From NCBI GenBank assembly GCA_045635585.1, contig JAZTWA010000011.1, positions 5,919 to 69,918 of the forward strand: a stretch of 64,000 nt of DNA. The letters are read 5' to 3'. The notes beneath the pieces are model-generated. The model saw nothing but the letters and a program-made list of their open reading frames with translations, did not search any database and was not told the DNA's origin. Position numbers and translations under genes: made by a program. Below are positions 684-50,635 of this stretch, piece by piece; the first letter of the stretch is position 1, and each line of letters opens with the position of its first letter. Origin of the DNA: Candidatus Enterousia sp. Lineage in GTDB: Bacteria; Pseudomonadota; Alphaproteobacteria; Rs-D84.

Positions 684-690
684 TAGTTTC

Positions 691-720: not shown

Positions 721-756
721 TGTTTCGCGATACTTTTACTGAGTTCGAAAGTTAGA

Positions 757-791: not shown

Positions 792-800
792 TTTTTTAGA

Positions 801-1507: not shown

Positions 1508-1637
1508 CAGATTCATGATTTTTTTTGTGGGGTTTTTTTTGTTTTTATTTTTGTTGAATATTCAAATATGTGTGCTATGAATAGATACATCATCGCAGAT
1601 GAGAATGTTTTTTCCAAAACAAAGAAAGGGGTAATTC

Positions 1638-4778: not shown

Positions 4779-4796
4779 AGACGGGTTTCGTAAAAT

Positions 4797-4822
4797 AAAA
4801 ATCCCCCAATCGGGGGATTTTT
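4797..4822. terminator. Bidirectional terminator between the autotransporter and grpE
   Basis: AAAAATCCCCC-AATC-GGGGGATTTTT. Confidence 0.75.
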
Positions 4823-4835
4823 ATTTGTAAAAATT

Positions 4836-5342: not shown

Positions 5343-5374
5343 TTTATTTACCTGTGTTCTTGGATACTATATAA

Positions 5375-6079
5375 CTATTTTACACTGGTTATTATAGGTA
5401 TGAAATCGTCGCTTTTCAAGGATGCGCCACCGACCAATACGCCATCAACATTTGATATGGACATAATTTGAGCCGCATTTGTCCCTTTGACCGATGCGCC
5501 ATATAATATTGGTGTGCCATTTAATCCCATGTCTGACAAGGTTTTTGCAATCAGGGTATGTGCATCTGCAATTTCTTCGTCTGTTGGTGTTAATCCCGCC
5601 CCGATTGCCCATCGTGGTTCGTATGCAATAATTATATCTGAATTTACGTTGGTTGGAATGCTTTCGCGAATCCCAGATTCAATAATTTCCATTGTTCTTC
5701 CGGCTTGTTTTTCGGCCATTGTTTCGCCGACACATATAATTGGTGTTAAACCATTGGCCAATGCTAATTCTGCTTTTTGTCGTACAGTGGCATTTGTGTC
5801 GCCATGGTATTCGCGACATTCACTGTGTCCGATAATTACATATTTGGCATTTGTGTCGGCAATCATAGATGCAGAAACTTCGCCAGTAAAGGCACCATGT
5901 GTGTGCGCGCTGACATCTTGGGCGCCCAATGAAATTTTACCAGAATTGGTGCATAACATTGTATATGGTACGCATAAAATTACCTGATTTGGCGTTTCCA
6001 GTTTTGATAGATCGTTAATCATTGATTCCAGATTTGAACGAGTGCCGTTCATTTTCCAGTTGCCTGCGATAATTTTCAT
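5375..6079 (-). CDS. tpiA: Triosephosphate isomerase
   Basis: IAGNWKMN, IIGHSE, AYEPRWAIG, LVGGASL; start placed at MKIIAGNWK. Confidence 0.97.
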   Translation of the reverse strand: MKIIAGNWKMNGTRSNLESMINDLSKLETPNQVILCVPYTMLCTNSGKISLGAQDVSAHTHGAFTGEVSASMIADTNAKYVIIGHSECREYHGDTNATVRQKAELALANGLTPIICVGETMAEKQAGRTMEIIESGIRESIPTNVNSDIIIAYEPRWAIGAGLTPTDEEIADAHTLIAKTLSDMGLNGTPILYGASVKGTNAAQIMSISNVDGVLVGGASLKSDDFIPIITSVK

Positions 6080-6145
6080 AAAAAAGCCTTTTTTTCGTTG
6101 ATTTTTTGTGTTTGCTTTTGCTATGGTAGCGCAAAAGGGGAACAA

Positions 6146-7558
6146 ATGCTAGAATATTTAAGAAATGCATCGGAAAAACCGGTCGCGAAAATTTTAATTG
6201 CTTTATTGGCCTTTTCATTCGTTGGATGGGGGGTTGCAGAATGGATTTTTGGAAATGTTGCGGGTGATAACACCTTGGTAAACGTTGGGAATACTGAAAT
6301 TTCAGTGCAACAGTTTAATTCGGAAAAGTCGCGCGAAATGGCCAAAATGTCTCGTGAACAACAGCGTGCGTTGTATACAGATGCGGATGCACAGCATGAA
6401 TTTAGTCAGCGTATTTTAACGACACTGGCAACCCAACAAATGGCAGAAAATCGTGCAAACGATTTGGGTTTTGTGGTCAGTGATAAACGAATCGCACGTG
6501 AAATTCGTGAATTCCCAGAATTTCAGGTTAATGGTGAATTTTCGCCATATGCGTTTGATTCGATTTTAAATAATTCTGGTTACAGTGAAGCGGCATTTGC
6601 GGATGTTTTGCGTGGTCAGGTTTTACGTTCAATGACTTTGGGGGCGATTTCTGAACCTGTGGCGGTGCCGGAATTTGCAGTGCGTGCGGCATATAATGCA
6701 CGTTATGGTGAACGCGATATTGAGTATGCAACAATAAAGTATGCTGATTTCAATGTTGATACACCATCAGACAAGGAATTGGCAGATTTTTATAAGCAAA
6801 ATCCACAGATGGTCCCAGAAACACGTCAGGTATCATATGTATTTATTGCGGCGGATATGGCAACACCCGATAAATATGATGCGGGTTATCAGACCGCGGT
6901 AAAGGTTGAAGACGATATTATTTCTGGTGAAACGATGAAAGATGCGGCGCAAAAGCATGGGGCAAAATATGTTGCATTGAATGCGTTTGGTCGTGATAAT
7001 CGTCCGGTTGATGCAATTTTGACCGATAAGATGGTTGAAAAAATCTTTGATATGGATCAGGGCTTGGAAAGCGAAATGATTGAATTAAAAGATGGTTTCT
7101 TGTTCGTGCGTGTTGATAATATTAACCCATCACATGTTGCGGAATTTGAAACAGTTAAAAAGTCATTGATTGCAGATTGGAAAAAATCACAACAGAAAAA
7201 GCAGGCATATGTTCGTGCAAATGATATGTTGGTCGATTTGAATAAAAATGAAAAATTATCAAATAAAAAATCGGCAACAGTGTCACGTATGTCTGGGGCG
7301 CCAACAGAAGTATTGGTGGCGGCATTCCGTAACAATGTTGGTCAGAATGCAATTGTCGAAGGCAGTGATGCGTTTTATGTTTTGTCTGTAAAAAAGGATA
7401 CTTTGCCAAAGGTCGATGACAAGAAAATGGCAGATGTTCGTAAAGAATTACAGAATATGTCTGAAAAATCATTGATGGATGATTATAATTCTTTTTTGAT
7501 GCGTGAATATCCGGTTGAAATTAATGACAAGGTATATAAACGTGTCTTTACAAAATAA
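6146..7558 (+). CDS. PpiD/SurA-N-domain periplasmic chaperone
   Basis: MLEYLRN..KILIALLAFSFVGWG N-terminal anchor and PETRQVSY motif; divergent from tpiA. Confidence 0.85.
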   Translation: MLEYLRNASEKPVAKILIALLAFSFVGWGVAEWIFGNVAGDNTLVNVGNTEISVQQFNSEKSREMAKMSREQQRALYTDADAQHEFSQRILTTLATQQMAENRANDLGFVVSDKRIAREIREFPEFQVNGEFSPYAFDSILNNSGYSEAAFADVLRGQVLRSMTLGAISEPVAVPEFAVRAAYNARYGERDIEYATIKYADFNVDTPSDKELADFYKQNPQMVPETRQVSYVFIAADMATPDKYDAGYQTAVKVEDDIISGETMKDAAQKHGAKYVALNAFGRDNRPVDAILTDKMVEKIFDMDQGLESEMIELKDGFLFVRVDNINPSHVAEFETVKKSLIADWKKSQQKKQAYVRANDMLVDLNKNEKLSNKKSATVSRMSGAPTEVLVAAFRNNVGQNAIVEGSDAFYVLSVKKDTLPKVDDKKMADVRKELQNMSEKSLMDDYNSFLMREYPVEINDKVYKRVFTK

Positions 7559-7588
7559 ACAAAAAGCCACCAAAATGGTGGCTTTTTG
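7559..7588 (+). terminator. Intrinsic terminator
   Basis: AAAAGCCACC-AAAAT-GGTGGCTTTTT. Confidence 0.7.
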
Positions 7589-7660
7589 TTTGGTTATAAA
7601 ACGATTGACAGTTTATTTCTTTTTTTGATAGTGTTGGTGTGTACATAGGGGATTATTAGG

Positions 7661-8116
7661 ATGAAATGTTTTCTTATAATATTATTGTGTTTTGTAACGT
7701 TGTCTGTAGATGCTGCAGTAATAAGTTGTTTTAAGGAACCAGATGAAAGCTCTAATTGTGTGCCAGGTGCGGTTGAAGATTATAGTGTGTTATGGTCTGC
7801 AACGTGTGGTGATGCCGCGATACAAGGTGTATCAATGTGTGCTGTGCCATCGGGTTCGGAAGAAACGGATAATAAACCCGTAATGGATGATTTAATTATT
7901 CATCAAACGAGATTATATATTTCGACAAAATCTTATGGTTATGTTAGATCATCGTGTTATTGTCGTGTCTTTTTTCCTCAGAATTATGATTGGGTTGAGA
8001 TAAAAAATATGGCGTCTGATCCGGATAATCCAGTGCCGGATGATTCTGATTTATGCGATAAACAATGCGCATCAGAGTGTTCAAAGAGTGTGAATAGATT
8101 ATTTAAATATATGTAG
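7661..8116 (+). CDS. Secreted Cys-rich hypothetical protein
   Basis: Signal peptide; CYCRVFFP and CDKQCASEC motifs. Confidence 0.7.
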   Translation: MKCFLIILLCFVTLSVDAAVISCFKEPDESSNCVPGAVEDYSVLWSATCGDAAIQGVSMCAVPSGSEETDNKPVMDDLIIHQTRLYISTKSYGYVRSSCYCRVFFPQNYDWVEIKNMASDPDNPVPDDSDLCDKQCASECSKSVNRLFKYM

Positions 8117-8118
8117 AT

Positions 8119-8850
8119 TTAGTATGGACTTATTCCTTCGTTGATTGTGAATGAACCGCGTGTGTCGGACATTTCAGAATTGTTGGGTATGTACATATGG
8201 CATATTGTGTGCGATTTCCCATCCATACAGGATTGTAGATTACGTGTTTCTGTTGTTGTACCGTCTGGGCATGATTGTGTGGAGTATTTTCCCAGTGTTT
8301 CTGTTATTTGTGCTGTGTAACCATCGGGGCAGATTTTGTCTTGTTTTTGGGTAACGCTAGGTATTGTATCAATTGTGTTTTCTGTTTTAGTAAAAAGGTT
8401 TGCGCATCGTTGTGTGCAGTTTGTATGTAACAGGAAAGATGAAACTGTCAGACCATTATAACCTGATGGATTTTCTTTTGTTGTGGCTTTTATTTGTAAT
8501 ACGGGTACGGTTACAATACATAAACAAGCAAATTTACAATAAGCGCATTTATTGTTATCATCAGCGGGGCCCGATGATTTGTGTGATGGTTTATTGTTTA
8601 TTGTGTTTCCTGTTGGAATGGCAAACCCTTTGACAACAAATTTTTCAAGTGGATTTTCTGGATTAGCGCATGAAGCTGCAAATGTTGTAGAGGTTGACAA
8701 TGTTGAGGTATCCCAAGTTGGTATATACGAATCATTACAGTAATCTTGGTTGTAGTTAGAAATACACTTTTTTACCGTTGTTGTGTCGGCGGCATGGACC
8801 GAAAAAGCGGGTGTTAGTATAAGTGTCAAAAATACCAAATATTTATTCAT
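8119..8850 (-). CDS. Secreted Cys-rich hypothetical protein
   Basis: Signal peptide (VHA); CLCIVTVP, CTQRCA and CPDG motifs. Confidence 0.7.
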   Translation of the reverse strand: MNKYLVFLTLILTPAFSVHAADTTTVKKCISNYNQDYCNDSYIPTWDTSTLSTSTTFAASCANPENPLEKFVVKGFAIPTGNTINNKPSHKSSGPADDNNKCAYCKFACLCIVTVPVLQIKATTKENPSGYNGLTVSSFLLHTNCTQRCANLFTKTENTIDTIPSVTQKQDKICPDGYTAQITETLGKYSTQSCPDGTTTETRNLQSCMDGKSHTICHMYIPNNSEMSDTRGSFTINEGISPY

Positions 8851-8853
8851 TTT

Positions 8854-9054
8854 TTATTTTTGTTTAAAGTGATTTTGTATTGCAAAGTACATGTCTAATA
8901 TTTTATCGATTTTACCGATTTTGGCAAAGCGTTTTTCTTCGCGTTTTTCGGCGTGTGCTAATTTTTTTGCATCATATTCCGATAACATTTGTTCGATTTC
9001 TGGATTTTTTATCCGATAATTTGGATCTGTTATTGCAATTGGTGTTTTGTTCAT
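8854..9054 (-). CDS. Small hypothetical protein
   Basis: 66-aa ORF with GGAG RBS, packed between virB11 and the Cys-rich gene. Confidence 0.6.
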   Translation of the reverse strand: MNKTPIAITDPNYRIKNPEIEQMLSEYDAKKLAHAEKREEKRFAKIGKIDKILDMYFAIQNHFKQK

Positions 9055-9083
9055 TTTTTTATCTCCGATTGTTACATATTTTT

Positions 9084-10043
9084 TTATACAACTGCAGTTA
9101 CTGCGCGCAGTGCGCCGTCGCGTGATAATTGTACAACACGAATTTTCTTTTTCATTTCGCGGATTAAATCGGTACGATTATATGCCGGTTGGGTGTGCAA
9201 AATACGGTCGGCAAATGCCGCGTATGCTGCATCAGGACTTTCCGCATGTATTGTTGTATAAAAGTGGTCGTGGCCCGTTCCCAACATTTCCCACAATACC
9301 GATGCATTGTCGGTTGATATTTCGCCACCAATAATTACATCTGGGGTCATACGAACAACCAAGTCCAAAAGACGTGCATAGTTAAAGTTATTATTTTGTT
9401 CGGTTCGTGACAAGACAAAGTGTACACGATTTTCCTGGGGAACACGAATTTCACGTGCGTCTTCGACGGTAATGACACGACTGTTTTTATCAATTAACGT
9501 TAACATATGATTTAAAAATGTTGTTTTCCCAGTTGCGGTTGCGCCCGATATTAAAATGGGACTGCCATCATTTATGGCAGACATTAATTTTTCATATGGA
9601 TCATCGGGACGAATGGTTTTTCGCGGTTTGACTTGTAATAATTTGTGGCCACGACGCAGATGATAGTTTTCAAAACTGGTGTCATGGGCGCCACCGCCAC
9701 GAATATTTAATGCAACGCCGCCAGTAATATCTTGTTCATCATATTGGACATTTGGACCCGCAATCGCAGTAAAACGATGATTCCCAGGTAATGTTGCATA
9801 TACGACCGGTATGCCATGAATTGGATCAAATGGGCGTTCGTATATGTTGGCAATTGTGTGAATCAAATCAACCAAATATTGTTTGCTTAATATTTCAGCA
9901 TTGTATGCAACCCATGGAACGCGTGAACCATGCAGTCGCATCCATACCTGGCCAGCGTGATTGATGGCGATTTCTTCGACAAATGACGGTTTATAAAATT
10001 CCGCCAATGGTTTTAATAAAGATTCCAATACAACATTTGACAT
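9084..10043 (-). CDS. virB11: VirB11/CpaF-family secretion ATPase
   Basis: EEIAIN, Walker A GATATGKTT, TVEDARE, RMTPDVIIGGE, GH..TTIHA. Confidence 0.85.
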   Translation of the reverse strand: MSNVVLESLLKPLAEFYKPSFVEEIAINHAGQVWMRLHGSRVPWVAYNAEILSKQYLVDLIHTIANIYERPFDPIHGIPVVYATLPGNHRFTAIAGPNVQYDEQDITGGVALNIRGGGAHDTSFENYHLRRGHKLLQVKPRKTIRPDDPYEKLMSAINDGSPILISGATATGKTTFLNHMLTLIDKNSRVITVEDAREIRVPQENRVHFVLSRTEQNNNFNYARLLDLVVRMTPDVIIGGEISTDNASVLWEMLGTGHDHFYTTIHAESPDAAYAAFADRILHTQPAYNRTDLIREMKKKIRVVQLSRDGALRAVTAVV

Positions 10044-10120
10044 TGTTGTAATTTTATCATAAATCCCCGCTTGAATCAAAAAAGTTTATTTGTTAAAATC
10101 AAAAAAAAGAGAGATTGAAT

Positions 10121-10684
10121 ATGAAAAAATCATTTTTATTTACTGTTTTATGTGCGGTTGCCTTGTCTGGGTGTATGAATAAATCTGATGTCCCGTATAA
10201 TGAACGCGACTTTGCCCAGGGTGGGGCAGATGCGCCGCTTTATAATGAGAGGACCAGTGAATTTATGCAATCTGATAATCAGTATGCAAATATCGATTCG
10301 TATAAACCAAAGACGGCCGCAGAAAAAGAACAAAATTCAAATCGTTGGAATACATCACGTATGGAAACCCGTTGGCAGGAATATAAGGGTGCCATGGTAC
10401 GTGTTCAGATTTTGTTGGGGAATACTGATTTGCGTGAAATGCGTTTGCGTATGATGCAAAATGCAGATGGTATGGATATTGATGGCGATTCGCGTACGGT
10501 TTTGGCCGCGGTGGCTGATTATGAAATGAAACGTATTTGTGGACGTAATGCCGACAGTATTGTTATGGTTTATGACAGACCGTCTTTTGATGTAATGCGT
10601 CCAACGCCATATTTCGATTATCGAATCGAAGCCGAAGGTGCGACAATGCGTGAATATGGTTTCAGATGCGTTTATAACAATTAA
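10121..10684 (+). CDS. Hypothetical lipoprotein
   Basis: Lipobox LSGC after a hydrophobic signal. Confidence 0.75.
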   Translation: MKKSFLFTVLCAVALSGCMNKSDVPYNERDFAQGGADAPLYNERTSEFMQSDNQYANIDSYKPKTAAEKEQNSNRWNTSRMETRWQEYKGAMVRVQILLGNTDLREMRLRMMQNADGMDIDGDSRTVLAAVADYEMKRICGRNADSIVMVYDRPSFDVMRPTPYFDYRIEAEGATMREYGFRCVYNN

Positions 10685-10716
10685 TTCTTGATAACAAAAA
10701 AACAAAGGGGAAAAAT

Positions 10717-11043
10717 ATGAAAAAGTTAGCAAGTGTTTTGGGCGTTTGTGCTGCGTTTGGTTTGACAGCATGCGATAGCAATGCTGGTGCAAAAAATGGT
10801 GATACTGTTGTAATTAATTTTGCGGGTTTCTTGGACGGTGTTCAATTCCCAGGTGGTACAGCAGAAAATTACCCATTGAAATTGGGCAGTGGTCAATTTG
10901 TTCCAGGGTTCGAAGAACAAGTTGTTGGTATGAAAGAAGGCGAAGAACGTGATATCAATATCACTTTCCCAACAGAATATGTTCCTGATTTGGCTGGAAA
11001 ATCGGTTGTGTTCAAGGTAAAAGTGGTTGATATTGTTGATTAA
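10717..11043 (+). CDS. FKBP-type peptidyl-prolyl isomerase lipoprotein (trigger-factor-like domain)
   Basis: Lipobox LTAC, then GDTVVINFAG..F.GG..E...LGSGQFVPGFEEQ..GMK.GEE..I.ITFP.EY..DLAGK...FKV. Confidence 0.85.
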   Translation: MKKLASVLGVCAAFGLTACDSNAGAKNGDTVVINFAGFLDGVQFPGGTAENYPLKLGSGQFVPGFEEQVVGMKEGEERDINITFPTEYVPDLAGKSVVFKVKVVDIVD

Positions 11044-11171
11044 TTTTATCTTTTGTAAATTAAATGCCCCATATGGGGCATTTTTTTGTACTTATTTGTG
11101 CTACGTTCCGAACCGACCGGTTCTTCGTCCGCCCAAGGCATAAAAAAAATCCCCATTACGGGGATTTAATC

Positions 11172-11256
11172 TGGTGGCCCTGGTCGGACTCGAACCGACA
11201 CTCCTTGCAGAACTTGATTTTGAGTCAAGCGCGTCTACCAATTCCGCCACGGGGCC
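11172..11256 (-). tRNA. tRNA-Leu(CAA)
   Basis: Reverse-strand cloverleaf with long variable arm, anticodon CT-CAA-AA and CCA end. Confidence 0.95.
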
Positions 11257-11273
11257 AGATGCACTGCGATAAA

Positions 11274-11642
11274 TTATGCAGCCTGTTTTGCATCAACTTT
11301 TTTGACCAAACGTGCACTGCGATTCGCCTTGTGTGTTGGCTTTTTAGCAGGTGCAGCAGGTTTGCCAGCCTTCTTTTCAATGGCTTTTTTAATTGCAGCC
11401 ATGTCTTCTGTCAAACGTGATACAGGTTTTGCCATTACATAGTTGTCCAAACCGCCATGCTTGGTCAATGTACGCAAACCAGCAGTTGAAATACGTAATG
11501 AAAAATCACGTCCCAGAATATCACTGTGGAACTTTAATACTTGCAAATTTGGCAAGAATGTACGTTTCGTACGACGATGAGAGTGGGAAACGTTCATCCC
11601 AACTTCTGTTTTCTTACCTGTAACTTTACATACACGTGGCAT
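11274..11642 (-). CDS. rpmB: 50S ribosomal protein L28 with C-terminal extension
   Basis: MPRVCKVTGK...NVSHSHRRTKRTFLPNL. Confidence 0.95.
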   Translation of the reverse strand: MPRVCKVTGKKTEVGMNVSHSHRRTKRTFLPNLQVLKFHSDILGRDFSLRISTAGLRTLTKHGGLDNYVMAKPVSRLTEDMAAIKKAIEKKAGKPAAPAKKPTHKANRSARLVKKVDAKQAA

Positions 11643-39853: not shown

Positions 39854-39930
39854 CGGGGTGTAGCTCAGCCTGGTAGAGTACTTGCATGGGGTGCAAGGGG
39901 TCGCAAGTTCGAATCTTGTCACCCCGACCA
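39854..39930 (+). tRNA. tRNA-Pro(GGG), integration target
   Basis: Cloverleaf, anticodon AT-GGG-GT, CCA end; its 3' end is duplicated downstream. Confidence 0.95.
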
Positions 39931-41403
39931 CTTTTCATTTGTGGTCAAATTCACCAGCATATCAAACGGTTTATTCAAGGAATACAGCAGTTTTCCGTCT
40001 TTTAGTGTGCAGTTCGAAAGTAGTAAGTTCAGCAGTGCACGTTTTTGTTCGACTTTCGAACTTTTAAATAATTCGCCAGCCATTGAAACAACCAAAAAGA
40101 CCGATTCTATCGTGGTTATAAATGATTTGTCCGCTGCGATGTGTGACCGCTGTCTGTTTTGGATGTCGAATATTTCTTTTTCCAGTTCGGAGCGTTTTGT
40201 GTCGTATTCGGTCTGTGTAATACTTTGGTTTAAAAGTAAGTCTAGCAGACGTGACTTTTTATCGTTGGCACGTTCTAATTGTTTGGCCAAGTCGTTCAAT
40301 GACTGGTTCAGGAACTCGTTTTCTGCCTGAATGGATGTTTTTAAAGCATCGACTATTTCCTGCATTATGTTTTGTGGGATTGATAATCTGTCGAATACTT
40401 CGGTTTGAATCTGTTCAAATATTTTCTGTTCGTTGACCGGCGGTTGTTGGCAGTTGCCTTTGTAATGAGAGCATTTCAAATATGTGTATGTTTTTCCGCT
40501 GGGTTTGGTTTTCAAGTCGCTGGATATTGCACAGCCACAATCTGCACAACGAATTAAACCGCCAAATGCGAATGGAATTTTTGCATATTTCTGTCGTTTG
40601 CTGGCTTTTTGGGTCATAACGGCCTGGCATTTGTCAAACAATTCTTTGCTTATTATGGGGTCGTATATGTGTGCGTATAAGTGACCCTTGACCCGCATAA
40701 CGCCATAATAAAATGGGTTAGTTAATAATTTCTGGATTAGTGATTTGTTTAGTGGTGCATTTTTCAGTCTGCTGGTTAGCCCAATATTTTTTGCCTGTTG
40801 AACCATTGCCCCAAGTGTGTAAAGTCCGGATGCGTATAATTCGAACAGTCGTTTGACTTTGAATGCGCGTTCTTGGTCAATAATAATTGTTGGATGATTG
40901 TTGTTATCACGGGCATTTTTGTAGCCAATGGGTGCCAAACTCTGCCATATCCCCTTGCCAGTGTTGTAATTGATACTGCGTTTAACATTATCACGCAGGT
41001 TTCCGACATAGGTCTTTGATGTGAAAACGCCTAAGTCCCATCTGGCGATATCGGCACTGTTTGAATCCTTGTGTATAACCAGGTTTTCACGAACAAAATG
41101 GATTTCTATTTTATCTGCATTGCGTAATTCGTCTAAATCGACGGATTCCTTGAATCCACGTTGCACACGGTCAATGGTATCTGCCACAAGTGCGACCTTA
41201 TGGGGCAATCCCTGGATATAACGCAATATTTCTTCGAATTTTTTGCGTTCGGATTTTGTGGAACTTTCAACAAGTTGGAATGTTTTTAATATTTCAAGGT
41301 CTTTTCTGGCACAGTAATTGCGTAAATTTTCTGTCTGGGCATCAATAGACATTCCCTCGGCTTGTTCTCGGGATGATACTCGTGCCAGCAGGACCGCATA
41401 CAT
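39919..41403 (-). CDS. Large serine recombinase (integrase)
   Basis: ARVSSREQ catalytic Ser, DRVQR, APIGY, recombinase domain, CADCG zinc ribbon, coiled coil; the stop lies inside the tRNA. Confidence 0.95.
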   Translation of the reverse strand: MYAVLLARVSSREQAEGMSIDAQTENLRNYCARKDLEILKTFQLVESSTKSERKKFEEILRYIQGLPHKVALVADTIDRVQRGFKESVDLDELRNADKIEIHFVRENLVIHKDSNSADIARWDLGVFTSKTYVGNLRDNVKRSINYNTGKGIWQSLAPIGYKNARDNNNHPTIIIDQERAFKVKRLFELYASGLYTLGAMVQQAKNIGLTSRLKNAPLNKSLIQKLLTNPFYYGVMRVKGHLYAHIYDPIISKELFDKCQAVMTQKASKRQKYAKIPFAFGGLIRCADCGCAISSDLKTKPSGKTYTYLKCSHYKGNCQQPPVNEQKIFEQIQTEVFDRLSIPQNIMQEIVDALKTSIQAENEFLNQSLNDLAKQLERANDKKSRLLDLLLNQSITQTEYDTKRSELEKEIFDIQNRQRSHIAADKSFITTIESVFLVVSMAGELFKSSKVEQKRALLNLLLSNCTLKDGKLLYSLNKPFDMLVNLTTNEKWSG

Positions 41404-41404
41404 T

Positions 41405-41737
41405 TTACATGCCCGCCACGTTAATCACTGGTTTTGTGCCAGTTTGTTTGAACGGAATGATTTTCATCAGTTCGTCTTCTGGAATGGCACGTCTTGCAGC
41501 GACCATATCTAAACGGTTCTGTAAACGCAGGAAATATCCCTGGGATAGGCCGAAATAACGCGTTAAACGTAAATCTACCTGGGCTGAAATGCCACGTGTG
41601 CCGTGGACAATGCCGTGTATGCAGTTCGCAGGCATGTCGATTGCACGTGCCAGCGCATTCATAGATAAGCCCAGCGGTTCCATAAATTCTTCACGTAAGA
41701 TATCGCCAATATGTCCGGTTTCAATATAATTGGTCAT
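41405..41737 (-). CDS. higA: HigA antitoxin (HTH)
   Basis: HIGDILREEFMEPLGLSMNALARAI...LRLQ. Confidence 0.92.
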   Translation of the reverse strand: MTNYIETGHIGDILREEFMEPLGLSMNALARAIDMPANCIHGIVHGTRGISAQVDLRLTRYFGLSQGYFLRLQNRLDMVAARRAIPEDELMKIIPFKQTGTKPVINVAGM

Positions 41738-41796
41738 AGAAAACGTCCTTTTTTGTTAACTGTATTATACATTATGTAATAGATAATGTCAAGTGT

Positions 41797-42078
41797 TTAA
41801 TGATAATCCACAATTTCGACATTGTTCGCCTCGTTTTCGTTCCAGACAAAGCAAATTCGGTATTGTTGATTTATACGAATACTCCATTGGCCTTTGCGTT
41901 TGCCACCAAGAGTTTCCAGCATGTTGGACGGCGGTATCCGCAGGTCGTCAATATTTTCGGCCGCATCCAGCATTGTTAATTTGCGGAATGCCCGTTCTTG
42001 TATGTTTGTTGGCAGTTTTTTTGAACGTTCACCGTTAAAAATCTTTTCGGTTTCTTTGTCATTAAAAGATTTAATCAT
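41797..42078 (-). CDS. higB: HigB (RelE-family) toxin
   Basis: MIKSF...DLRIPPSNMLE.L.G.RKGQWSIRINQQYRICF...VEIVDYH. Confidence 0.93.
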   Translation of the reverse strand: MIKSFNDKETEKIFNGERSKKLPTNIQERAFRKLTMLDAAENIDDLRIPPSNMLETLGGKRKGQWSIRINQQYRICFVWNENEANNVEIVDYH

Positions 42079-43214
42079 CGTGTTTCCTTTTGTAATTCCG
42101 GGTAATCGGCCAACTTAACGGCTTTAAATTCTGCCAATTCGGTTTCAATCTGTTTGAAAATATTGTATAAATAGTTTCCAGTTAAATCAACCGGTTTTAA
42201 GCAGTTTGATAAATGCCTGTATGTGCGTCCAGATGGGGATAATACCTGGTGCAGGGAACGTATTCCGTGTTCTTTGATATAGCCCAGTGCACCGCAACAT
42301 TTTATGGTATCTGATTCTTTTAATCCGCAGGAACGCAGTTGTGTGAATATTGCCTGGGGGCTTTGGCTTGCTGTGATGACAATGTTTAATGATGGTCGTA
42401 TGAATTTGTCCCAGAAATGTAATAGAACTGATTGGGCGGTTGTCGCAGAAAATAGTTCTTTGAATGTCAGGTTGTTGACGGGGATATTGCATTCCTGCAA
42501 TGTGTTTTTTATGTGTCGTCTGTTGTTTAGTCGGCATTCCATTCGCATAATTTGTGCCTGGGGTTTTAATTGGTTGAATAGGTCCAGTTGAATTGCGTTG
42601 TCGGATTCGATTGCCCGGTTTTCGCTGATGCGTGCATGTTCTAAATCTTTAACCTTGTCATAGAATGTTAATTCGCAGTGATTGGTGTGAAATCTGACCG
42701 CTTGGCCGTCATTGCGAAAATCTGTGTCGCCCAGGTCCCAGCGTTTTGAAACTTTCAGTTTGTGTATGGTGTTTATGACCAGCGCACAGGTTGATTTGTT
42801 TTCCAGCACGATGTTTTTGCCATAATGTATGCCTGTGACGGTGGCATTAATCAATGTATTGTATGTTAGTATGATTCCCATTGTCGCCAGTTGGTAATGC
42901 AACATCTGTATGACGGTTTGAAAATCGCTGGGGAGCATTTCATCAAAATTATTCCCAAATATCAGTTTGGGCAACGACAGTTCGATTTTTAATGCGATTG
43001 AAAAGCCGCCTTGTCGGATTCGTTTGGACAGTGTTAAGCGTGGTTTATATTCGTTGTCGTGTTTGCTGGGGTTTAAAAAGCATTCAAAGTGTCCACGTGC
43101 CCCCAGAATGTAATATGGTGGCTCGAACAGTCCACGTGCGCTGGGACTGAATTTATCATAGTCAACGATTTGAAATTGTTCAAATGGTATGCTTAGGATG
43201 ACCGTATCAATCAT
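42075..43214 (-). CDS. Putative replication initiator, phage/plasmid II/X-like
   Basis: MIDTV, LKIELSLPKL..GNN, FYDK and R.E.RL pattern resembling gene II/X replication proteins; located in a mobile element. Confidence 0.55.
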   Translation of the reverse strand: MIDTVILSIPFEQFQIVDYDKFSPSARGLFEPPYYILGARGHFECFLNPSKHDNEYKPRLTLSKRIRQGGFSIALKIELSLPKLIFGNNFDEMLPSDFQTVIQMLHYQLATMGIILTYNTLINATVTGIHYGKNIVLENKSTCALVINTIHKLKVSKRWDLGDTDFRNDGQAVRFHTNHCELTFYDKVKDLEHARISENRAIESDNAIQLDLFNQLKPQAQIMRMECRLNNRRHIKNTLQECNIPVNNLTFKELFSATTAQSVLLHFWDKFIRPSLNIVITASQSPQAIFTQLRSCGLKESDTIKCCGALGYIKEHGIRSLHQVLSPSGRTYRHLSNCLKPVDLTGNYLYNIFKQIETELAEFKAVKLADYPELQKETR

Positions 43215-43368
43215 ATTTGTGTCTCTTGGGCTGTTGTGCGTTGACCTGCATCAGGATTTCAACAAATTTAACCAGGCGTTGACTTGCGTTTAATGCGTCC
43301 TGGTCAGACAGGGATTGTCCAGGATATAGTGTTTTTAACTGCAAAGATAACGCTTGCGTGTTTGTCAT
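43207..43368 (-). CDS. Small hypothetical protein of the element
   Basis: MTNTQALSLQLKTLYPGQSLSDQDA...; overlaps the rep start. Confidence 0.55.
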   Translation of the reverse strand: MTNTQALSLQLKTLYPGQSLSDQDALNASQRLVKFVEILMQVNAQQPKRHKYD

Positions 43369-43412
43369 ACCAACAATGTAAATGGCACGACAGGTGTAAA
43401 GCAAAGGGTCAA

Positions 43413-43438
43413 TGGGTCGGACCCTTTGGGTCGGACCC
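43413..43438. repeat. Tandem palindromes TGGGTCGGACCC x2 (operator or origin candidate)
   Basis: Exact 12-bp direct repeat at 43413-43424 and 43427-43438; each copy contains GGGTC-G-GACCC. Confidence 0.7.
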
Positions 43439-43526
43439 AAAACAAATGCGAAAATCTGGGCTTTTTTATTAGAAAACTTTTTCTGGAAACGGTATAAAAA
43501 CGGTGTTTTGCGAATCGTGGGGCGTG

Positions 43527-44237
43527 CTATGCGTGGCCTTTTTGGGATTCTGGCAAACGGATAATTGTCGCCATATATTCCGCCAAAGATTGTGATGGTC
43601 TAAGGCCATGTTCTGTCATTTTTTGTATAATAACATCGGTTAAAATCTTTTTTAATGGCTGGTTGGTGTCGGTGATTTTTAACTCGTTTATAACCTCGAC
43701 CATTATTTCCATGTATGGTGTGGAATATCGTTTTTCAATGGCATTAAATGCGGTTGTAGAATGTCTAGAATGAAACTCACGTTTCAAATCCTGAAATGGT
43801 ATGTATATGTCGGTGTATGTTGTGTCGTTTATTTGGATTGTATTTTTACCAATGTCCAGTTTAACCGTATTTGGAATATTGGTTATTTGTTGGTGTTGGG
43901 GCTGTTTATCGGGTGTTGAAACCATGCCATAGGCATTTATATCGCCATCATAAAGGGCCAGTTTTAATTTAGCGGCGGCATCGTATATTTGTTTAGAATA
44001 ATCTTTATCGGCCTGGGTAGTAAAACGCAGTGCGATTTCTGAAAATATTGGTGTGGTTTCAAAATCTGGGTGCAACAGTGCGTGGCGTTTGAATCCAAGT
44101 GCATTTGCACGGATTTGTTCCATCGGCGGAATTTTAAACGCAATCCATTCACAGGCCTGTTGCAGGGTGCAGTTTTCAAAGATTTCTGTTCTGTGTTTCA
44201 TAATGCGTAATGGTATCGCAAAAAGTGGCTGTTTCAA
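43527..44237 (-). CDS. Hypothetical protein of the element (possible regulator)
   Basis: 236-aa ORF with helical C-terminus (SLAEYMATIIR); start uncertain. Confidence 0.6.
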   Translation of the reverse strand: MKQPLFAIPLRIMKHRTEIFENCTLQQACEWIAFKIPPMEQIRANALGFKRHALLHPDFETTPIFSEIALRFTTQADKDYSKQIYDAAAKLKLALYDGDINAYGMVSTPDKQPQHQQITNIPNTVKLDIGKNTIQINDTTYTDIYIPFQDLKREFHSRHSTTAFNAIEKRYSTPYMEIMVEVINELKITDTNQPLKKILTDVIIQKMTEHGLRPSQSLAEYMATIIRLPESQKGHA

Positions 44238-44285
44238 GGGATTTTACATTGAAATTGTTTTTTGCGAAAAAGTATGTTAAACTGA

Positions 44286-44515
44286 CGGACAGGACCAATC
44301 GGGAAAGTTGTGTCCGGGGCCGTAGAAAGCCCAGTTTTTATCCGGTGCAGAATGCATCGTTTCCAACATGGTGTTGACTGCACCGTTTTTGACCCTGACT
44401 TGTATGTCGGGGGGCTGTTGTCATAGAACAGGCATATTGCCAAAAGCAGCAGGAATCAAATGATAAAAACTGATTTTTCTAACCCCCCGACCGCCATCCC
44501 GTTGGCGGTTTAATT
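44286..44515 (+). ncRNA. Candidate structured non-coding RNA/leader upstream of mod
   Basis: Multiple perfect stems, an 11-bp closing stem, and an alternative 9-bp pairing next to a terminator-like hairpin. Confidence 0.45.
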
Positions 44516-44535
44516 TTTACACAATGGGGTGGGTT

Positions 44536-46431
44536 ATGAAATCGCTGATAGAGGCATTGCCAGACGTAGTAAAACAGGGGCGACGTGAGGTTGAACAGAT
44601 TTTGGCACGTGCACAATCTGATAACAAAATGATGTTGCAAACAAATGAATATGTTCTGCCCGCCCGTGATGAAAGCGGTTTGTTTCGTGGCACAATTCGT
44701 GCATGCTGTCCACCCGATAATACCAGCGCAGAATATTGTGAAACAGACGGTTGGTTTAACCGATTGATAAACGGTGACAATCTGTTTGCGATGCAGGCAT
44801 TATTGACCGGCGACCCGGCAACCGGGCTGTCCAGTATGCGTGGTAAAATAGACCTGATATACATCGACCCCCCGTTTGATAGTAAGGCGGATTATCGGAC
44901 AAAAATAACACTGCCCAATGGGGATGTGGAACAAAAACCAACGGTGTTGGAACAATTTGCATATTCAGACACTTGGTCAGATGGCACAATATCGTATCTG
45001 AAAATGTTGTATCCACGTTTGGCGTTGATGAAAGAACTGTTGTCCGACCAGGGGGCTATATATGTTCATTGTGACTGGCACGCTGGGCATTATTTGAAAA
45101 TAATTTTGGATGACATTTTTGGAAAAAATAACTTTGTTAATGAAATTGTTTGGGGATATGCCACTGGTGGTGCCAGTAAAGAGTTTTATGGCAGGAAACA
45201 CGATTTGATTTTGTATTATAGAAAAAATGTAGATAATTATTTGTTTTATCCAGAACTTATAAAAGAACAACGAACAGAAAAATCATTGAAACGGGCACAA
45301 AATCAAAATGGTGCAAGAATCAGTAATACAGACGATAAAAAACTTCCAACAGATTTATGGTGTGATATTAACGCATTGAACCCAATGGAAAAAGAACGCG
45401 TAGATTATGCGACACAGAAGCCAGAAAAATTATTAGAAAAAATTTTACTCGCTTCATCCAATGAAAATTCTATTGTGGCGGATTTCTTTGGTGGGTCTGG
45501 AACGACCGCAGCGGTTGCCGAAAAGTTGGGACGGCGTTGGATAACATCTGACCTGGGCAAGCCGTCATGTATGATTATGCGTAAACGTTTGATTGATATT
45601 CCGGATTGCAAGCCATTCTTGTATCACAGTATTGGTGATTATTCGCGTGAGGCATTTTTGTCTGATAAACAATTTCGCCGTGTGTCCGACCTGGCACGTG
45701 TTGTTATGGGGTTGTATGGCGCATTACCGTTTGATGTGGCGGATGCGCCATCCAACCTGGGGCATATTCGCAATAGCAGCACCTTGGTATATGTGGACAG
45801 CCCAAACAAGGTGACCAATGCAAACACGGTTAAACGTGCGCTGGAACTGCGTGAATCATATATGGGCGGTTGGAACAAGGTTGTTGTCCTGGGGTGGAAC
45901 TTTGCATTTGATATTGGTGCTACTATCCAGGGGCTGAATAAATCAGAATGCGAAGTCCTGGTTATTCCACCAGATTTGTTGGATATGTTGCGTAAAAAGG
46001 GGTATGCAGACTTGGTTAACAGCGGGAAAATAACATTTTCATCACTGCAATATTTAACCATTAAACGGCCGTTGGTTGTGCCGGCCAATGAAGACGGCCA
46101 GGTTAAGATAACTGTTGAATTGGATAATTATGTGCTGTTATCACCGGACAGTTTGCCATTGGACGATAAAGCCAAGGCAAAGGTTCAACAGGTTATGGCA
46201 GAACGCCCATTGGATTTGATTGAATATTGGTCGATTGACCCGGATTATGACGGGCAAACTTTCCGTTCTGTATGGCAGGATTATCGTGAAAACACCGCAA
46301 ATGACGGCGATGCCGTGCGTGTGGTGCACAATGCCGAAATTATCACCCCAGCGCACCCAGGCAAACGCAAGATTTGTGTCAAGGCCGTGGATGTATTCGG
46401 GTTTGAATCAATGGTTGTTGAGGAGGTATAA
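44536..46431 (+). CDS. mod: Type III R-M methyltransferase (Mod)
   Basis: YIDPPF motif [16 protein letters not shown] motif I, long C-terminal domain; upstream of res. Confidence 0.9.
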
Positions 46432-46432
46432 A

Positions 46433-46807
46433 TTGCAATCTAAACAACGTGAAATTTTGCAATATGTAAAACAAATACCGGGTGTAAAAGATATTGATAT
46501 ATGCGGACGGGATGGGGTTAGGCACAATAACATTCAAAAAGAATGGGCGCAAAGGGTGTTGTATGAAACACGGGCGCATTTAGAAGAGTTGTTAAGACGT
46601 GGATATATTTCGTGTGATGAAAAGATGTATTCAAACGGTAAGTCGTTCACGAATATAAAAATTACATCAAAAGGCAACTGGTATTTTTGTAAAAAAATAA
46701 TCGCAAAGGGGGCTTATGTGATTGTATTCACTGTGCCTGTTGCGGTTGCGGCCTGGATAAGTTTGGCAGACGCAATAATAAAATTATTTAATAAAGGGGT
46801 AGCATAA
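46433..46807 (+). CDS. Small wHTH-like protein with C-terminal TM helix, between mod and res
   Basis: TTG start after GAGGAGG; LEELLRRGYI...ITSKG wHTH pattern; hydrophobic AYVIVFTVPVAVAAWISLA; TAATG coupling to res. Confidence 0.7.
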   Translation: MQSKQREILQYVKQIPGVKDIDICGRDGVRHNNIQKEWAQRVLYETRAHLEELLRRGYISCDEKMYSNGKSFTNIKITSKGNWYFCKKIIAKGAYVIVFTVPVAVAAWISLADAIIKLFNKGVA

Positions 46808-49743
46808 TGGCATCACCAACAAATTCTGGAACACGTGATATTCCATTAAAATTCGCCAAGGGGTTAACTGAATTGGTTAATACCGAATGGGAAAACGGGC
46901 ATTTTCTGGCCACTGTATCGCCAATAACAGCCGACCTGTTGCGGTATTGGTTCGACCCATCATTTTGTGATGTTCGTGACCGCAATTTTCATGATGGCCA
47001 ACGTCAGGCGATTTTGAACGCAATATATGTGCACGAGGTTTTAAAGTCCAATTCTGTGGTTGATATGTATGCACACCTGTCCAATGTGACTGATACGTCC
47101 TATGTTGACCAGAACTTTACAGACGTTATAACCGCCGATAAATATCGCTATCCAAAGTATTGTGTTAAAATGGCAACCGGAACGGGTAAAACGTGGGTGC
47201 TGAATGCGTTGTTGATATGGCAGTATTTGAATGCTAAATATCAAACCAGTAATGGCGTAAAATATACCAAGAACTTTCTGTTAATTGCACCGGGACTGAT
47301 TGTATATGAACGTCTGTTAGATGCGTTTCGTGGCAAAGAAATTGCCCTTGGACGGCGTGATTTTGAAACATCTGACCTGAAAAGCAACCAGGAATTGTTT
47401 GTGCCTGAAAAATATCGCCAAGATGTATTTTCATTTATTCAAAATGCGGTGGCGGATAAAAAGGAAATTGGCAACAAAACAACTGGCGGCGGCATAATTG
47501 CAATAACGAACTGGCATAAATTGAACGAAGATACGCCGGATGGTGAATCCGAAACCCAAATTATGGGTTTTGACTTTGGTGACACACAAAATATGGCATC
47601 TGAAATCTTGCCTGTGACACCGGGTGTTGCCAGTGGTAATGCATTGGATGCGCTGGATGCAAAATACCTGCGTGGTGGGGTAATTGAATATCTGGCAGGT
47701 TTATCAGACCTGTGTGTATTTAATGACGAAGCACACCACATCCACGAAAGTAAATCGAACGGCATCGTGGCCGAGGTTGAGTGGCAACGTGCATTGAATA
47801 CCATTGCGGACCCCAAGGGCAACAGTTTTATTCAAATCGACTTTTCTGCGACCCCGTATATTGTGACGGGCGGTGGCAAGAACAGAACCAAACACTTTTT
47901 TCCGCACATTGTGACCAATTTTGAATTGGCGACTGCGATGAAAGCCGGTTTTGTCAAAACCTTTATTCTGGACAAGCGTAAGGAATTGGGGGCGTTGTCT
48001 AATGCAGAAATTGAATTCAAGGCCGTGCGTGAGGGCAAACAGGTAATCGGCCTGTCTGAGGGGCAACGTTTAATGTTGCGTGCTGGGCTGTCACGTTTAA
48101 ATATATTGCGTGAAGATTTTGAGAACTTTAACGCCAAAAAATCGCCAAAAATGTTGGTCGTTTGCGAAGATACAGATGTGTCGCCGTTTGTGGTGGACTT
48201 TTTGCGGTCCGAGGGATTGGCCGAAGACGATATTATGCGTATTGATTCCAACCGCAAAGGTGAAATCCCACCAGAAGAATGGGAACAAACAAAACAGCAG
48301 TTATTTAACATGGACAAGTCTGACAAGCCCAAGGTTGTTGTCAGTGTTATGATGTTGCGTGAGGGGTTTGATGTTAACAGTATTTGCGTTATTGTGCCCC
48401 TGCGTTCATCCGAGGCACCAATATTGCTGGAACAGGTTTTGGGACGTGGATTGCGTTTAATGTGGCGTGAACCCGAATTCCAAGACAGCAAGGCAGAAAA
48501 CAGACATAACATATATGACCTGAAACAACAACCAGTTAATTATCTGGATACTTTGTTTGTTATTGAACATCCGGCGTTTGAAAAATTCTATGATGACCTG
48601 GATAAAAGTTTGTTGGTTGAAGAACCTGCAACCCGTCCTGGTGGTAAAGGCAAGGCGTTGGGTGATATGATTTCTGTTGGTTTGAAACCGAACTTCGCAG
48701 AATTGAATTTGTTTTGGCCACGCATTGTAAAAGACAAAGAAGAAACTATGTCAGGCGATGTTATATCTGTTGAAAGCATGAACCAATGGGACGGGGCAAG
48801 ATTGGGCGATTTGAAAAAATTGGTGCCAAATGATAATGATGAACGTTTCGTTGGGGTTGAAATGCAGGTCAAAACCCGCTTTGGTGAATACAGGGTGCGT
48901 GGCGATATATTTAACGCAAAGTCATACAATGAATATCTGCAAAAAATGCTGAACACAATTATTGTGAATATGGCCAAGATGAGCAGCAAGGGGCATAAAG
49001 CCGAACTGCCATTGATGCAGATTGACCAGGCGTTGTTAATGCGAACCATCGATAAGTATATCCGGACCCGTCTGTTCGGCCAGGAATTTGACCCATTAGT
49101 AGACGGGAATTGGCGTGTGCTGATATTATCAAACGGGCAAATATTGCAACACACCCTGACAGAACTGTCCAAGGCGGTTTATGAAATGCACACCAGAATT
49201 GATGTGGCCGAGGCAGTTGTGGAAAAACATTGGTTTTCGCAAGTTGATACAATGTTTGGGCGTGAAAATTTTGCGTTGGATATAAAAAAGTCGATTTATG
49301 AAAAAACGTTCTATCCGTCAACAACAAAACTGGAAAAAGATTTTCTGGAATATTGTGATGCGGACAGTGCCGTTGAACGTTTGATAAAAATTGATGAACA
49401 CAAGCATCCGTTTGCGCACCTGCGTTATTTACGCCAGGACGGCATGTTGGGAACCTATCATCCGGACTTTATGGTAAAAATCGGCAATAAAATGTATGTC
49501 GTAGAAACCAAAGGTGATGACAGGGCAAAAACGGCCGATGTGTGCAGTAAAGAAACCAGTGCGGTTGACTGGGTGGCCAAGATAAATGAATTGCCCGAAT
49601 CAGAACGTATGGGCTGTGAATGGTCGTATGTGTTATTGACTGGCAGTAATTTCTATGCCTTGCGTGACCAAAATGCCAACATTCAGGACATATTGTCGCA
49701 CAGCAAACTAACACGCACCCGTGCACAAGGCACATTGATATAA
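46807..49743 (+). CDS. res: Type III restriction helicase/endonuclease (Res)
   Basis: MATGTGKT, DEAHH, FSATP, LREGFD, QVLGRGLR, and a C-terminal PDF..ETKG nuclease. Confidence 0.92.
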   Translation: MASPTNSGTRDIPLKFAKGLTELVNTEWENGHFLATVSPITADLLRYWFDPSFCDVRDRNFHDGQRQAILNAIYVHEVLKSNSVVDMYAHLSNVTDTSYVDQNFTDVITADKYRYPKYCVKMATGTGKTWVLNALLIWQYLNAKYQTSNGVKYTKNFLLIAPGLIVYERLLDAFRGKEIALGRRDFETSDLKSNQELFVPEKYRQDVFSFIQNAVADKKEIGNKTTGGGIIAITNWHKLNEDTPDGESETQIMGFDFGDTQNMASEILPVTPGVASGNALDALDAKYLRGGVIEYLAGLSDLCVFNDEAHHIHESKSNGIVAEVEWQRALNTIADPKGNSFIQIDFSATPYIVTGGGKNRTKHFFPHIVTNFELATAMKAGFVKTFILDKRKELGALSNAEIEFKAVREGKQVIGLSEGQRLMLRAGLSRLNILREDFENFNAKKSPKMLVVCEDTDVSPFVVDFLRSEGLAEDDIMRIDSNRKGEIPPEEWEQTKQQLFNMDKSDKPKVVVSVMMLREGFDVNSICVIVPLRSSEAPILLEQVLGRGLRLMWREPEFQDSKAENRHNIYDLKQQPVNYLDTLFVIEHPAFEKFYDDLDKSLLVEEPATRPGGKGKALGDMISVGLKPNFAELNLFWPRIVKDKEETMSGDVISVESMNQWDGARLGDLKKLVPNDNDERFVGVEMQVKTRFGEYRVRGDIFNAKSYNEYLQKMLNTIIVNMAKMSSKGHKAELPLMQIDQALLMRTIDKYIRTRLFGQEFDPLVDGNWRVLILSNGQILQHTLTELSKAVYEMHTRIDVAEAVVEKHWFSQVDTMFGRENFALDIKKSIYEKTFYPSTTKLEKDFLEYCDADSAVERLIKIDEHKHPFAHLRYLRQDGMLGTYHPDFMVKIGNKMYVVETKGDDRAKTADVCSKETSAVDWVAKINELPESERMGCEWSYVLLTGSNFYALRDQNANIQDILSHSKLTRTRAQGTLI

Positions 49744-50144
49744 CATACCTGTATACCATCCCCCCCCTATGGGTAAGGGGATAGGTGTGTGGGCACATAT
49801 AGAAAGAATGCTTTTTTTTACAAGGCGGGTCGGGAAATTTCTCGGCCTGTTTTGATGTGCCAATTCTTACCGTATTCGTTTTCTATGTTTTCAATGATGA
49901 TATTTAATGCCGGACGCAGATTTAGAATGTCGTTGTAATAAATAGTTCGAAATTCGTCCGATATCCCCGACCATAAAAATTCAAACCGTCCAAAATGGGC
50001 GGTTTTAATTTTTATCAGTGGGTATTTCAGTTCGATACATTATACACATTTGTGTGTATCAAGTTCGACAATGAGTAAATGAGCCAAATGAAATGCCGGC
50101 GAATTGTTACGAATGCCCCGCGGTCCGTTAATTGACGGACAAGG

Positions 50145-50164
50145 GAATCTTGTCACCCCGACCA
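50145..50164 (+). repeat. 20-bp duplicate of the tRNA-Pro 3' end (second att-like site)
   Basis: GAATCTTGTCACCCCGACCA, identical to 39911-39930. Confidence 0.9.
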
Positions 50165-50200
50165 TAAAATTCAAACCGCCTATTTTGGACGGTTTTTCTT

Positions 50201-50635
50201 TTATGGACATATTTGTGGGATTAGATCTGCAATTTGAATACTTTGTGCGTACGCACGTGCAGAAGGAACCGCGCATGGATCGCAATCACGACGGCGTTCG
50301 CCAATTCGACATGCAAATGCGACATCTTGGCATATTCCATATGTGTGTGCAGTAATTTTTTCGTTCATGTAATCGTTTGCAATTTGCCAATATCGGGTGG
50401 GAACTGATTTTGGGTCGTATGCCCACATTTTCATAACAATATTTGTGGCGCGCTTTGTGCATGAATCATGGCCACTGATGTGTGTGATTGTTGGTGTTAT
50501 GTTGTTTCGTGGATCTGAATTTGTGCGTTTGATTATTACCCATGCGATTATACATATACAAATTACGGTTACCAAAAATAACAGTATATAATGTGCGATT
50601 GTAAATGGGCTGGTGTTTGGGTTGGATCGTGCCAT
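50201..50635 (-). CDS. Membrane-anchored Cys-containing hypothetical protein
   Basis: N-terminal TM helix and CDPC motif. Confidence 0.65.
   Translation of the reverse strand: MARSNPNTSPFTIAHYILLFLVTVICICIIAWVIIKRTNSDPRNNITPTITHISGHDSCTKRATNIVMKMWAYDPKSVPTRYWQIANDYMNEKITAHTYGICQDVAFACRIGERRRDCDPCAVPSARAYAQSIQIADLIPQICP

Follow-up and report, generated by a model that had tools for sequence, protein, structure and literature searches.

What becomes of a recombinase whose own attachment site lies within its coding sequence, so that insertion of the element exchanges the end of the gene? This question is raised by an integrative island in the genome (0.93 Mb) of Candidatus Enterousia sp., a gut alphaproteobacterium, of which we analyzed a window of 64,000 nucleotides (nt) (assembly GCA_045635585.1, contig JAZTWA010000011.1, positions 5,919 to 69,918 of the forward strand; coordinates are those of the window unless another contig or locus is named). 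By their sequence, positions 39931-49964 together with a shared core at each end make up an island of about 10 kb, inserted at the end of a transfer RNA (tRNA) gene. Its integrase gene spans the attachment site of the free element (attP), and integration therefore changes the C-terminus of the encoded enzyme. From the sequence comparisons below we consider it highly probable that the island has this anatomy and that its integrase occurs in two forms set by the state of integration. The features that carry the argument are the following.

39854-39930, plus strand: tRNA-Pro(GGG), the integration target, left intact (ARAGORN; Rfam tRNA, 59.6 bits); its last 9 nt are the shared core
39919-41403, minus strand: large serine recombinase in its integrated (short) form, 494 residues (open reading frame; PF00239, PF07508, PF13408)
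39922-39930: attL core CCCCGACCA, the last 9 nt of the tRNA; its minus strand reads W-S-G, the final three codons of the integrated integrase
49818-49964, minus strand: separated 3' part of the integrase gene, with 48 codons and a closing TAA (49818-49820); in frame with the gene only in the excised (attP) form
49965-49973: attR core CCCCGACCA, at which the island ends on its far side and homology between the window and the loci L001, L002 and L004 stops

The integrase reading frame ends in ...NEKWSG, and its TGA stop codon (39919-39921) falls within tRNA-Pro(GGG). Read on the minus strand from 49973 to 49818, the far end of the island gives W-S-G, then 48 residues ending in RPAL and then TAA, so that the predicted enzyme of the circular form has 542 residues as opposed to 494 in the integrated state. 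A first-pass annotation of this DNA had placed the tRNA, the stop, both cores, the tail frame and the two GTTCGAA motifs treated further below, and all of these positions hold on re-reading the sequence; its open tail frame of 48 codons starting from the second core is likewise borne out by translation. The chance of finding 48 open codons is about 0.065 by base composition; for positions and frames drawn at random from the window, with coding frames among them, it is 0.26. The open tail frame alone is not significant, and because of this the case rests on comparison with relatives.

A six-frame search with the tail over 328 genomes of the order gave matches in 23, and the locus was read in 22 of these (G163, a partial match with two stops, was dropped). 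In 22 of 22 loci the order is host terminator, core and tail. At 21 of these loci the tail frame runs for 41-51 codons before a stop, and at the remaining one it runs for 31. That related elements should carry the tail at their far end had been put forward in the first-pass annotation as a check on its reading, and it is indeed found there, on the same strand and in the same register, in 21 other genomes and with selection acting in frame. An intact integrase, 59-80% identical to that of the window, is present in G221, G004, G165 and G230 on the same strand as the tail, with 4.7-9.2 kb between the two; these genes run into tRNA-Gln or its antisense remnant and end in WLGQLDSNQH or WLGRTDSNHDKENQNLLSYH. 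At one further locus, L060 (G055:C7:68200-76500), the integrase is internally deleted such that only residues 1-77 and 293-494 match, yet the tail has kept an open frame of 46 codons.

As evidenced by ratios of nonsynonymous to synonymous changes (pN/pS; uncorrected proportions, with synonymous sites near saturation), the tail frame differs from its shifted frames. In 15 pairs the head of the tail, codons 4-20, gave 0.15-0.68 in frame versus 0.35-3.4 (median about 1) in the shifted frames, and the distal tail from codon 21 to the end gave 0.39, 0.46 and 0.41 in three divergent pairs versus 0.87-1.13 in the shifted frames; values for the integrase body are 0.18-0.37. For the window against G221, Fisher's test yielded p = 0.0003 for the distal tail and p = 0.002 for the head. 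The residues Y-Y-x-D-I of the tail are kept through synonymous changes. By these comparisons the tail is under purifying selection as a protein.

The long form predicted for the circle has a contiguous counterpart in P0005, a protein of 543 residues and 80% identity that runs past W-L-G into a tail homologous to that of the window. We further sorted 120 listed homologues (40-99% identical) by their C-terminal ending. Antisense tRNA provides the ending in 77 of the 120: in 68 the tryptophan is followed by the T-loop in reverse reading (D-S-N = GAT TCG AAC), and in 9 a stop follows at most three residues after the tryptophan, as it does in the window's gene. Long tails were found in 18 of the 120 (17 and, in addition, P0036), with R-T at positions W+8/+9, while 24 have other endings, several of these with the T-loop signature after a residue other than tryptophan, and one is partial. 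The same alternation is seen in 35 loci on viral contigs, where integrated copies lie in tRNA-Gln, tRNA-Arg and tRNA-Pro and free copies carry long tails. Two of these contigs, L076 and L077 (positions 4595-4700), are identical over 4606 nt; from the core onward one continues in antisense tRNA-Gln and the other in a tail reading frame. They are the integrated and the free version of a single phage-like element, and the frame used through their core (S-L-A) is not that of the W-x-x clade. Because the cores measure 6-9 bp and thus lie far below the 31-letter words of Logan contigs, we infer that a contig running from the gene through the core into the tail represents a genuine attP molecule. The proposal of the first-pass annotation that the element makes two integrase forms according to its integration state thus draws support from the conservation of the tail, from the contiguous long form of the 80% identical relative and from the alternating endings within the family.

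Several observations nevertheless weigh against two integrase forms and a selected tail. P0005 stands alone, as one protein on one 7-kb contig that was read as protein. The 542-residue form of the window's own integrase is absent among the 15 listed members of its 90% cluster (40 of 57 read), whose lengths are 494, 496, 512 and 515 residues. A profile of the tail compared with 1.84 billion representatives, whose clustering at 50% could hide long forms, gave 24 matches of 42-159 residues and no full-length enzyme, and the 12 matches that were read are all reading frames of attR junctions. Searches of word indices with the tail only retrieved nothing beyond P0005, P0001 had no match among longer proteins, and residues 488-543 of P0005 matched only P0005 itself. 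A metagenome scan with P0005 (7 loci, 5 examined) gave no new long form: the four readable gene ends were all integrated, twice in tRNA-Gln and twice in tRNA-Asn, and one locus ran off its contig. The circle junction for which the first-pass annotation had suggested looking was not found, in that the assembled contigs of four sequencing runs contained no back-joining joint. As to selection, the pairs used for pN/pS are relatives and not independent samples. In the distal tail, the closely related pair G055 and G244 shows the opposite trend, with about 5.5 nonsynonymous versus 0.5 synonymous changes, G055 being the genome with the internally deleted integrase, and the distal tails of distant family members cannot be aligned with each other. 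Finally, the arginine codon in the R-T of the tail is CGA in 22 of 22 loci, and this fixation points to a constraint at the level of DNA that would be laid over the one on the protein.

The contigs of the sequencing runs also contained a joint that skips from 39935 to 50308; it had low support (one contig, with 34 letters on the shorter side) and was not used.

Besides the two cores that bound the island, a third copy of CCCCGACCA lies inside a 20-bp repeat in the adjoining flank and offers a different boundary.

49974-50205, plus strand: host flank outside the island, with the displaced tRNA terminator (49983-50005), a remnant of about 170 bp, the 20-bp tRNA-end repeat (50145-50164) and a terminator-like hairpin (50173-50195) that was called on the minus strand only

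Excision through the 20-bp repeat, by which the stop codon would never change, was the outcome that the first-pass annotation had named as fatal to its reading. The repeat is longer than the 9-bp core and is followed by a second terminator-like stretch, but the comparison with independent insertions places the boundary elsewhere. Five further species-level genomes of gut Alphaproteobacteria, two of their records being labelled Candidatus Enterousia, have integrases 98-99% identical to that of the window. At L001, L002, L003 and L005 the reading frame enters tRNA-Pro(TGG), which gives the protein the ending WSGRKDSNLRHLGPKPSTLPD, and at L004 it runs into sequence that is not a tRNA. The far end of the near-identical island is reached only at L001, L002 and L004; there the tail is 98-100% identical and on the same strand, similarity to the window reaches as far as the core and no further, each locus having a different flank. 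What these independent insertions have in common therefore ends with the 9-bp core, and the 20-bp repeat is missing from the 230 nt of flank inspected at L002. Moreover, G014 (L017), which carries no island, shows at the same tRNA a terminator, a segment of about 115-150 bp bounded by repeats, a 16-bp tRNA-end repeat and a second terminator, and G003 is a clean empty site in which tRNA-Pro(GGG) and its terminator are followed by a corA-like gene (window counterpart at 50751). Serine integrases also need matched half-sites and not long identity (PMC3783163). We therefore give next to no credence to excision at the 20-bp repeat. Because G014 has a repeat-bounded segment without the island and G003 is empty, the repeat bounds a separate small remnant and not the island. 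The island itself has moved recently, integrases of 98-99% identity being found in five species-level genomes with at least four types of junction, and excision must therefore occur.

Some further observations concern these flanks and targets. The segment of about 170 bp holds a near-palindrome with TTCGA at both ends (about 50026-50070), and related segments are present in G014, at L001 and at tRNA-Pro(TGG) on contig C6 of the window's own genome; it could be the remnant of another element or a miniature element. Contig C6 also carries a second island of about 11 kb (about 340-11574) after tRNA-Pro(TGG), bounded by two further copies of the 3' end of this tRNA, and beside this tRNA only a weak, sub-threshold match to a tyrosine recombinase was obtained (22.8 bits). 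The tRNA-Pro(TGG) that serves the window's island as target in other genomes is thus occupied by something else here. At L004 (11470-11600) the integrase reads ...WSATYRENPYF... into its non-tRNA sequence, which contains a T-arm-like hairpin, and in P0158 the same integrase reads ...WSVGI and then stops; these odd junctions may be secondary sites or rearrangements.

The integrase was examined for the features of its class. PF00239, the catalytic domain, covers residues 4-115 (E = 3.8e-13), the TP901-1 catalytic domain also matches, and R8, S10, Q14, R53, D78, R79 and R82 are invariant in an alignment of 87 sequences. Recombinase and zinc-ribbon domains are found at residues 182-265 (PF07508) and 280-332 (PF13408). 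The nearest solved relative by sequence is the A118/LI integrase, and its C-terminal domain, including the coiled-coil part, aligns in sequence with residues 224-421 of P0005. The enzyme is thus a serine recombinase, and it does not have the chemistry of the tyrosine recombinases.

For serine integrases, a published rule states that the motif bound by the zinc ribbon lies 5 bp nearer to the centre in the host site (attB) than in attP (PMC3783163). The motif to which this rule can be applied is GTTCGAA, present in the tRNA arm and in the tail-coding arm.

39907-39913, plus strand: GTTCGAA in the tRNA T-loop (B arm), 8 nt before the core and 14 nt before CCA
49945-49951, plus strand: GTTCGAA as T-loop mimic (P arm), 13 nt before the core and 19 nt before CCA; its minus strand forms part of the F-R-T codons of the tail

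The distances of 14 nt in the B arm and 19 nt in the P arm recur in 6 of 6 junction sets, which cover tRNA-Pro with GGG and TGG and tRNA-Gln with CTG and TTG anticodons. They also hold for L076 and L077, and TTCGAAC stands at the expected place in four of five distant long-form lineages. The offset of 5 nt noted in the first-pass annotation is accordingly real and general, and on the tRNA side of the site it agrees with the published attB/attP offset. For the opposite arms, B' and P', symmetry analysis gave no consistent motif. Large serine recombinases exchange strands at a central dinucleotide, and their one-way reaction is turned back by a directionality factor. The point of exchange can be narrowed down by comparing junctions. 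In elements of the Gln type, attL and attR share only TGGTTG, and in the two odd junctions of the window's own element the shared identity with attP shrinks to TGGTCGG, as read at L004 and as deduced for P0158 from the peptide alone. Because the shared stretch shrinks to these letters, the crossover would lie in the final 6-7 nt of the tRNA.

From this a sequence of events can be proposed. The crossover would fall among roughly the final six nucleotides of the tRNA (C-R-A-C-C-A), so that the tRNA stays whole and the integrase gene is cut after its W-S-G codons. The circle would encode the 542-residue enzyme with its tail of 48 residues, presumably the form that integrates, while the integrated gene would stop at once in antisense tRNA. 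GTTCGAA in both arms, placed 5 nt further out in the element arm, would let the enzyme tell attB from attP.

What the exchange of the tail does for the element is a separate matter. By analogy with Mx8, discussed below, we consider it slightly better than an even chance that loss of the tail changes the activity or the stability of the island-encoded enzyme. In a more specific version of this idea, the tailed enzyme of the circle would only integrate and the tail-less enzyme of the island would excise, recombining attL with attR without a separate directionality factor; if this is true, the DNA state of the element sets the direction of its own recombinase. A BLAST comparison of the element types (the window with G221, G004 with G165, and G230) found no gene common to all of them besides integrase and tail, and no universal candidate for a directionality factor is visible across the types. 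The tail starts at the end of the zinc-ribbon domain, and published control of directionality is located where it begins: DBD2 and the coiled-coil base are where a directionality factor binds, and fusions of the factor to the integrase C-terminus are functional (PMC11722253). The recent movement of the island further indicates that excision does happen. Such factors are small and diverse, however, so that their absence from a BLAST comparison is weak evidence, and two backbone reading frames of 77 and 236 residues could encode factors for the window's island. We regard a switch of direction by the tail as unlikely on balance. The tail might also be a tag for degradation, by which the free form of the integrase would be short-lived and integration would remove the tag, as in phages of the BPs type. 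BPs-type systems use exactly such tags (PMC9262239), and 6 of 33 distinct long-form tails end in ssrA-like -LAA, -IAA or -VAA (tallied by eye, without statistics). These endings belong to distant members of the family (P0036, L061/63, L064, L070/71, L074 and L083-85) and are lost in integrated relatives. None of the nine tail types of the genus ends in this way, however (PAL, PTL, TYG, THM, HIA, IRI, ILS, YII/IRI and IRL), and the ssrA tag of the host is AANDNVRLAMAA, ending in MAA, whereas the window's tail ends in PAL. The window's tail does not carry an ssrA-like tag of the BPs kind, the suggestion in the first-pass annotation that -PAL might be a degron finds no support in this clade, and degradation is a doubtful explanation here.

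The tail could also be a by-product, in that attP overlaps the end of the gene because the enzyme reads the T-loop motif of the tRNA, both forms then being equivalent. This would account for the coincidence of the most conserved tail residues, F/L-R-T, with the DNA motif, for an arginine codon fixed as CGA at all 22 loci, for the preserved DNA geometry of L076 and L077 in spite of a core read in another frame, and for tRNA-derived endings that vary freely from 0 to 21 or more residues. It fares less well with the distal part of the tail. Codons 21 to the end, at a distance of 60-150 nt from the core, lie too far out for any likely att arm and yet show pN/pS of about 0.4 in frame versus about 1 in shifted frames; Y-Y-x-D-I is maintained through synonymous changes; and long tails have at least about 24 residues in the 18 seen, with the exception of P0120 (14 residues, its end possibly cut). 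Equivalence of the two forms is improbable in our view, and a change in activity or stability upon loss of the tail is the likelier reading.

The remaining genes of the island comprise a toxin-antitoxin pair, three backbone genes and a type III restriction-modification system.

41405-41737, minus strand: HigA-like helix-turn-helix antitoxin, whose gene immediately precedes that of the integrase in this minus-strand row (PHROG 1381, E = 1.2e-16; open reading frame)
41797-42078, minus strand: HigB-like toxin of the RelE family, type II toxin-antitoxin pair (Pfam PF05015, E = 3.7e-26)
42075-43214, minus strand: backbone protein of 379 residues, common to L001, L004 and G221
43207-43440 and 43527-44237, minus strand: two backbone open reading frames of 77 and 236 residues, kept in L001, L004 and G221
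44524-46431 and 46807-49743, plus strand: mod and res, cargo type III restriction-modification (PF01555, PF04851)

The integrase is the last gene of the minus-strand row that contains the HigBA pair, and a single nucleotide separates the stop of the antitoxin from the start of the integrase. Because of this spacing, expression of the integrase may be coupled to autoregulation of the pair. None of the three backbone proteins matched a Pfam or PHROG family. For the one of 379 residues, a search with language-model features led to nearest clusters in which 17-26% of the members have PF05144 (Phage_CRI); as a lead only, the protein is possibly a rolling-circle replication initiator, in which case the circle of the island may replicate. 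The restriction-modification cargo is present in L001 and absent from L004 and G221. An Rfam scan of the window gave only tRNA above threshold, and between the backbone genes and mod (44405-44500) there is a sub-threshold match to sRNA-Xcc1 (29.6 bits against a gathering threshold of 53, E = 0.079).

Serine integrases are the main tools for the one-way insertion of large DNA, and work on how to set or reverse their direction is ongoing (PMC11722253). Ready-made pairs of isoforms for such engineering would come from a family in which integration alters the C-terminus, and a tail that starts at the end of the zinc-ribbon domain seems well placed to matter for directionality. The T-loop would serve these integrases as the distal binding motif, and the F/L-R-T codons of the tail would be dual coding, specifying protein and at the same time part of the enzyme's own predicted binding site. 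There are consequences for annotation as well. Integrases acquire odd endings such as ...DSN... from antisense tRNA, spurious small reading frames are called at attR, and a core of 9 bp would escape programs designed to find islands by tyrosine integrases and long repeats. The entries P0122-P0145 are such spurious predicted proteins, of 42-159 residues, in which host flank is read into the integrase tail, and P0127 contains two such junctions in tandem.

Genes that span an attachment site have precedents. In the Mx8 integrase (IntP/IntX), attP lies inside the int coding sequence, and integration gives a new 3' end, a different C-terminus and altered behaviour (PMC6070905, PMC4383910). The island of the window resembles Mx8 in an integrase gene that spans attP and in a C-terminus that changes upon integration, but Mx8 Int is a tyrosine recombinase, whereas the enzyme described here is a large serine recombinase without arm-type sites. 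The target of Mx8 is presumably a tRNA gene as well. Archaeal integrases of the SSV1 type are likewise named as having genes that span attP (PMC4383910). These are tyrosine recombinases of archaeal viruses and plasmids, and their gene is cut into two large parts, whereas the window's integrase loses only the last 48 of 542 codons. When SSV1-type elements insert at a tRNA gene, the integrase gene, which reaches over both sides of attP, is broken in two. Phages of the BPs type have attP inside a gene, C-termini that differ between the viral and the prophage form, a tRNA target and no evident directionality factor (PMC9262239, PMC8092301). The island shares all four traits with them. In BPs, however, the repressor is remodelled, the integrase is a tyrosine recombinase and an ssrA-like tag is removed, whereas here the integrase itself is remodelled and the tail of the clade has no such ending.

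Among serine integrases, those of A118/LI, phiC31 and Bxb1 and SprA of SPbeta resemble the window's enzyme in the succession of resolvase, recombinase and zinc-ribbon domains, the latter with a coiled-coil insert, and in the 5-bp offset between attB and attP. Two papers on these enzymes treat attP as a separate site of 40-50 bp and do not place it within the gene (PMC3783163, PMC11722253), and in this the island differs from the phage-type systems, its attP lying within the gene and its target being the end of a tRNA. According to a database paper from 2015, tRNA genes are not known as targets of serine integrases (PMC4383910); in contrast, the family considered here does so, at tRNA genes for Pro, Gln, Arg and Asn. 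A full-text literature search returned no description of a serine integrase gene that spans attP at a tRNA, although supplementary tables of att sites, which lie outside such a search, might list tRNA targets. An integrase gene that extends across its own attP is thus known for tyrosine integrases, in Mx8 and SSV, and the corresponding arrangement for the repressor of BPs; in the island of Candidatus Enterousia it is a serine integrase.

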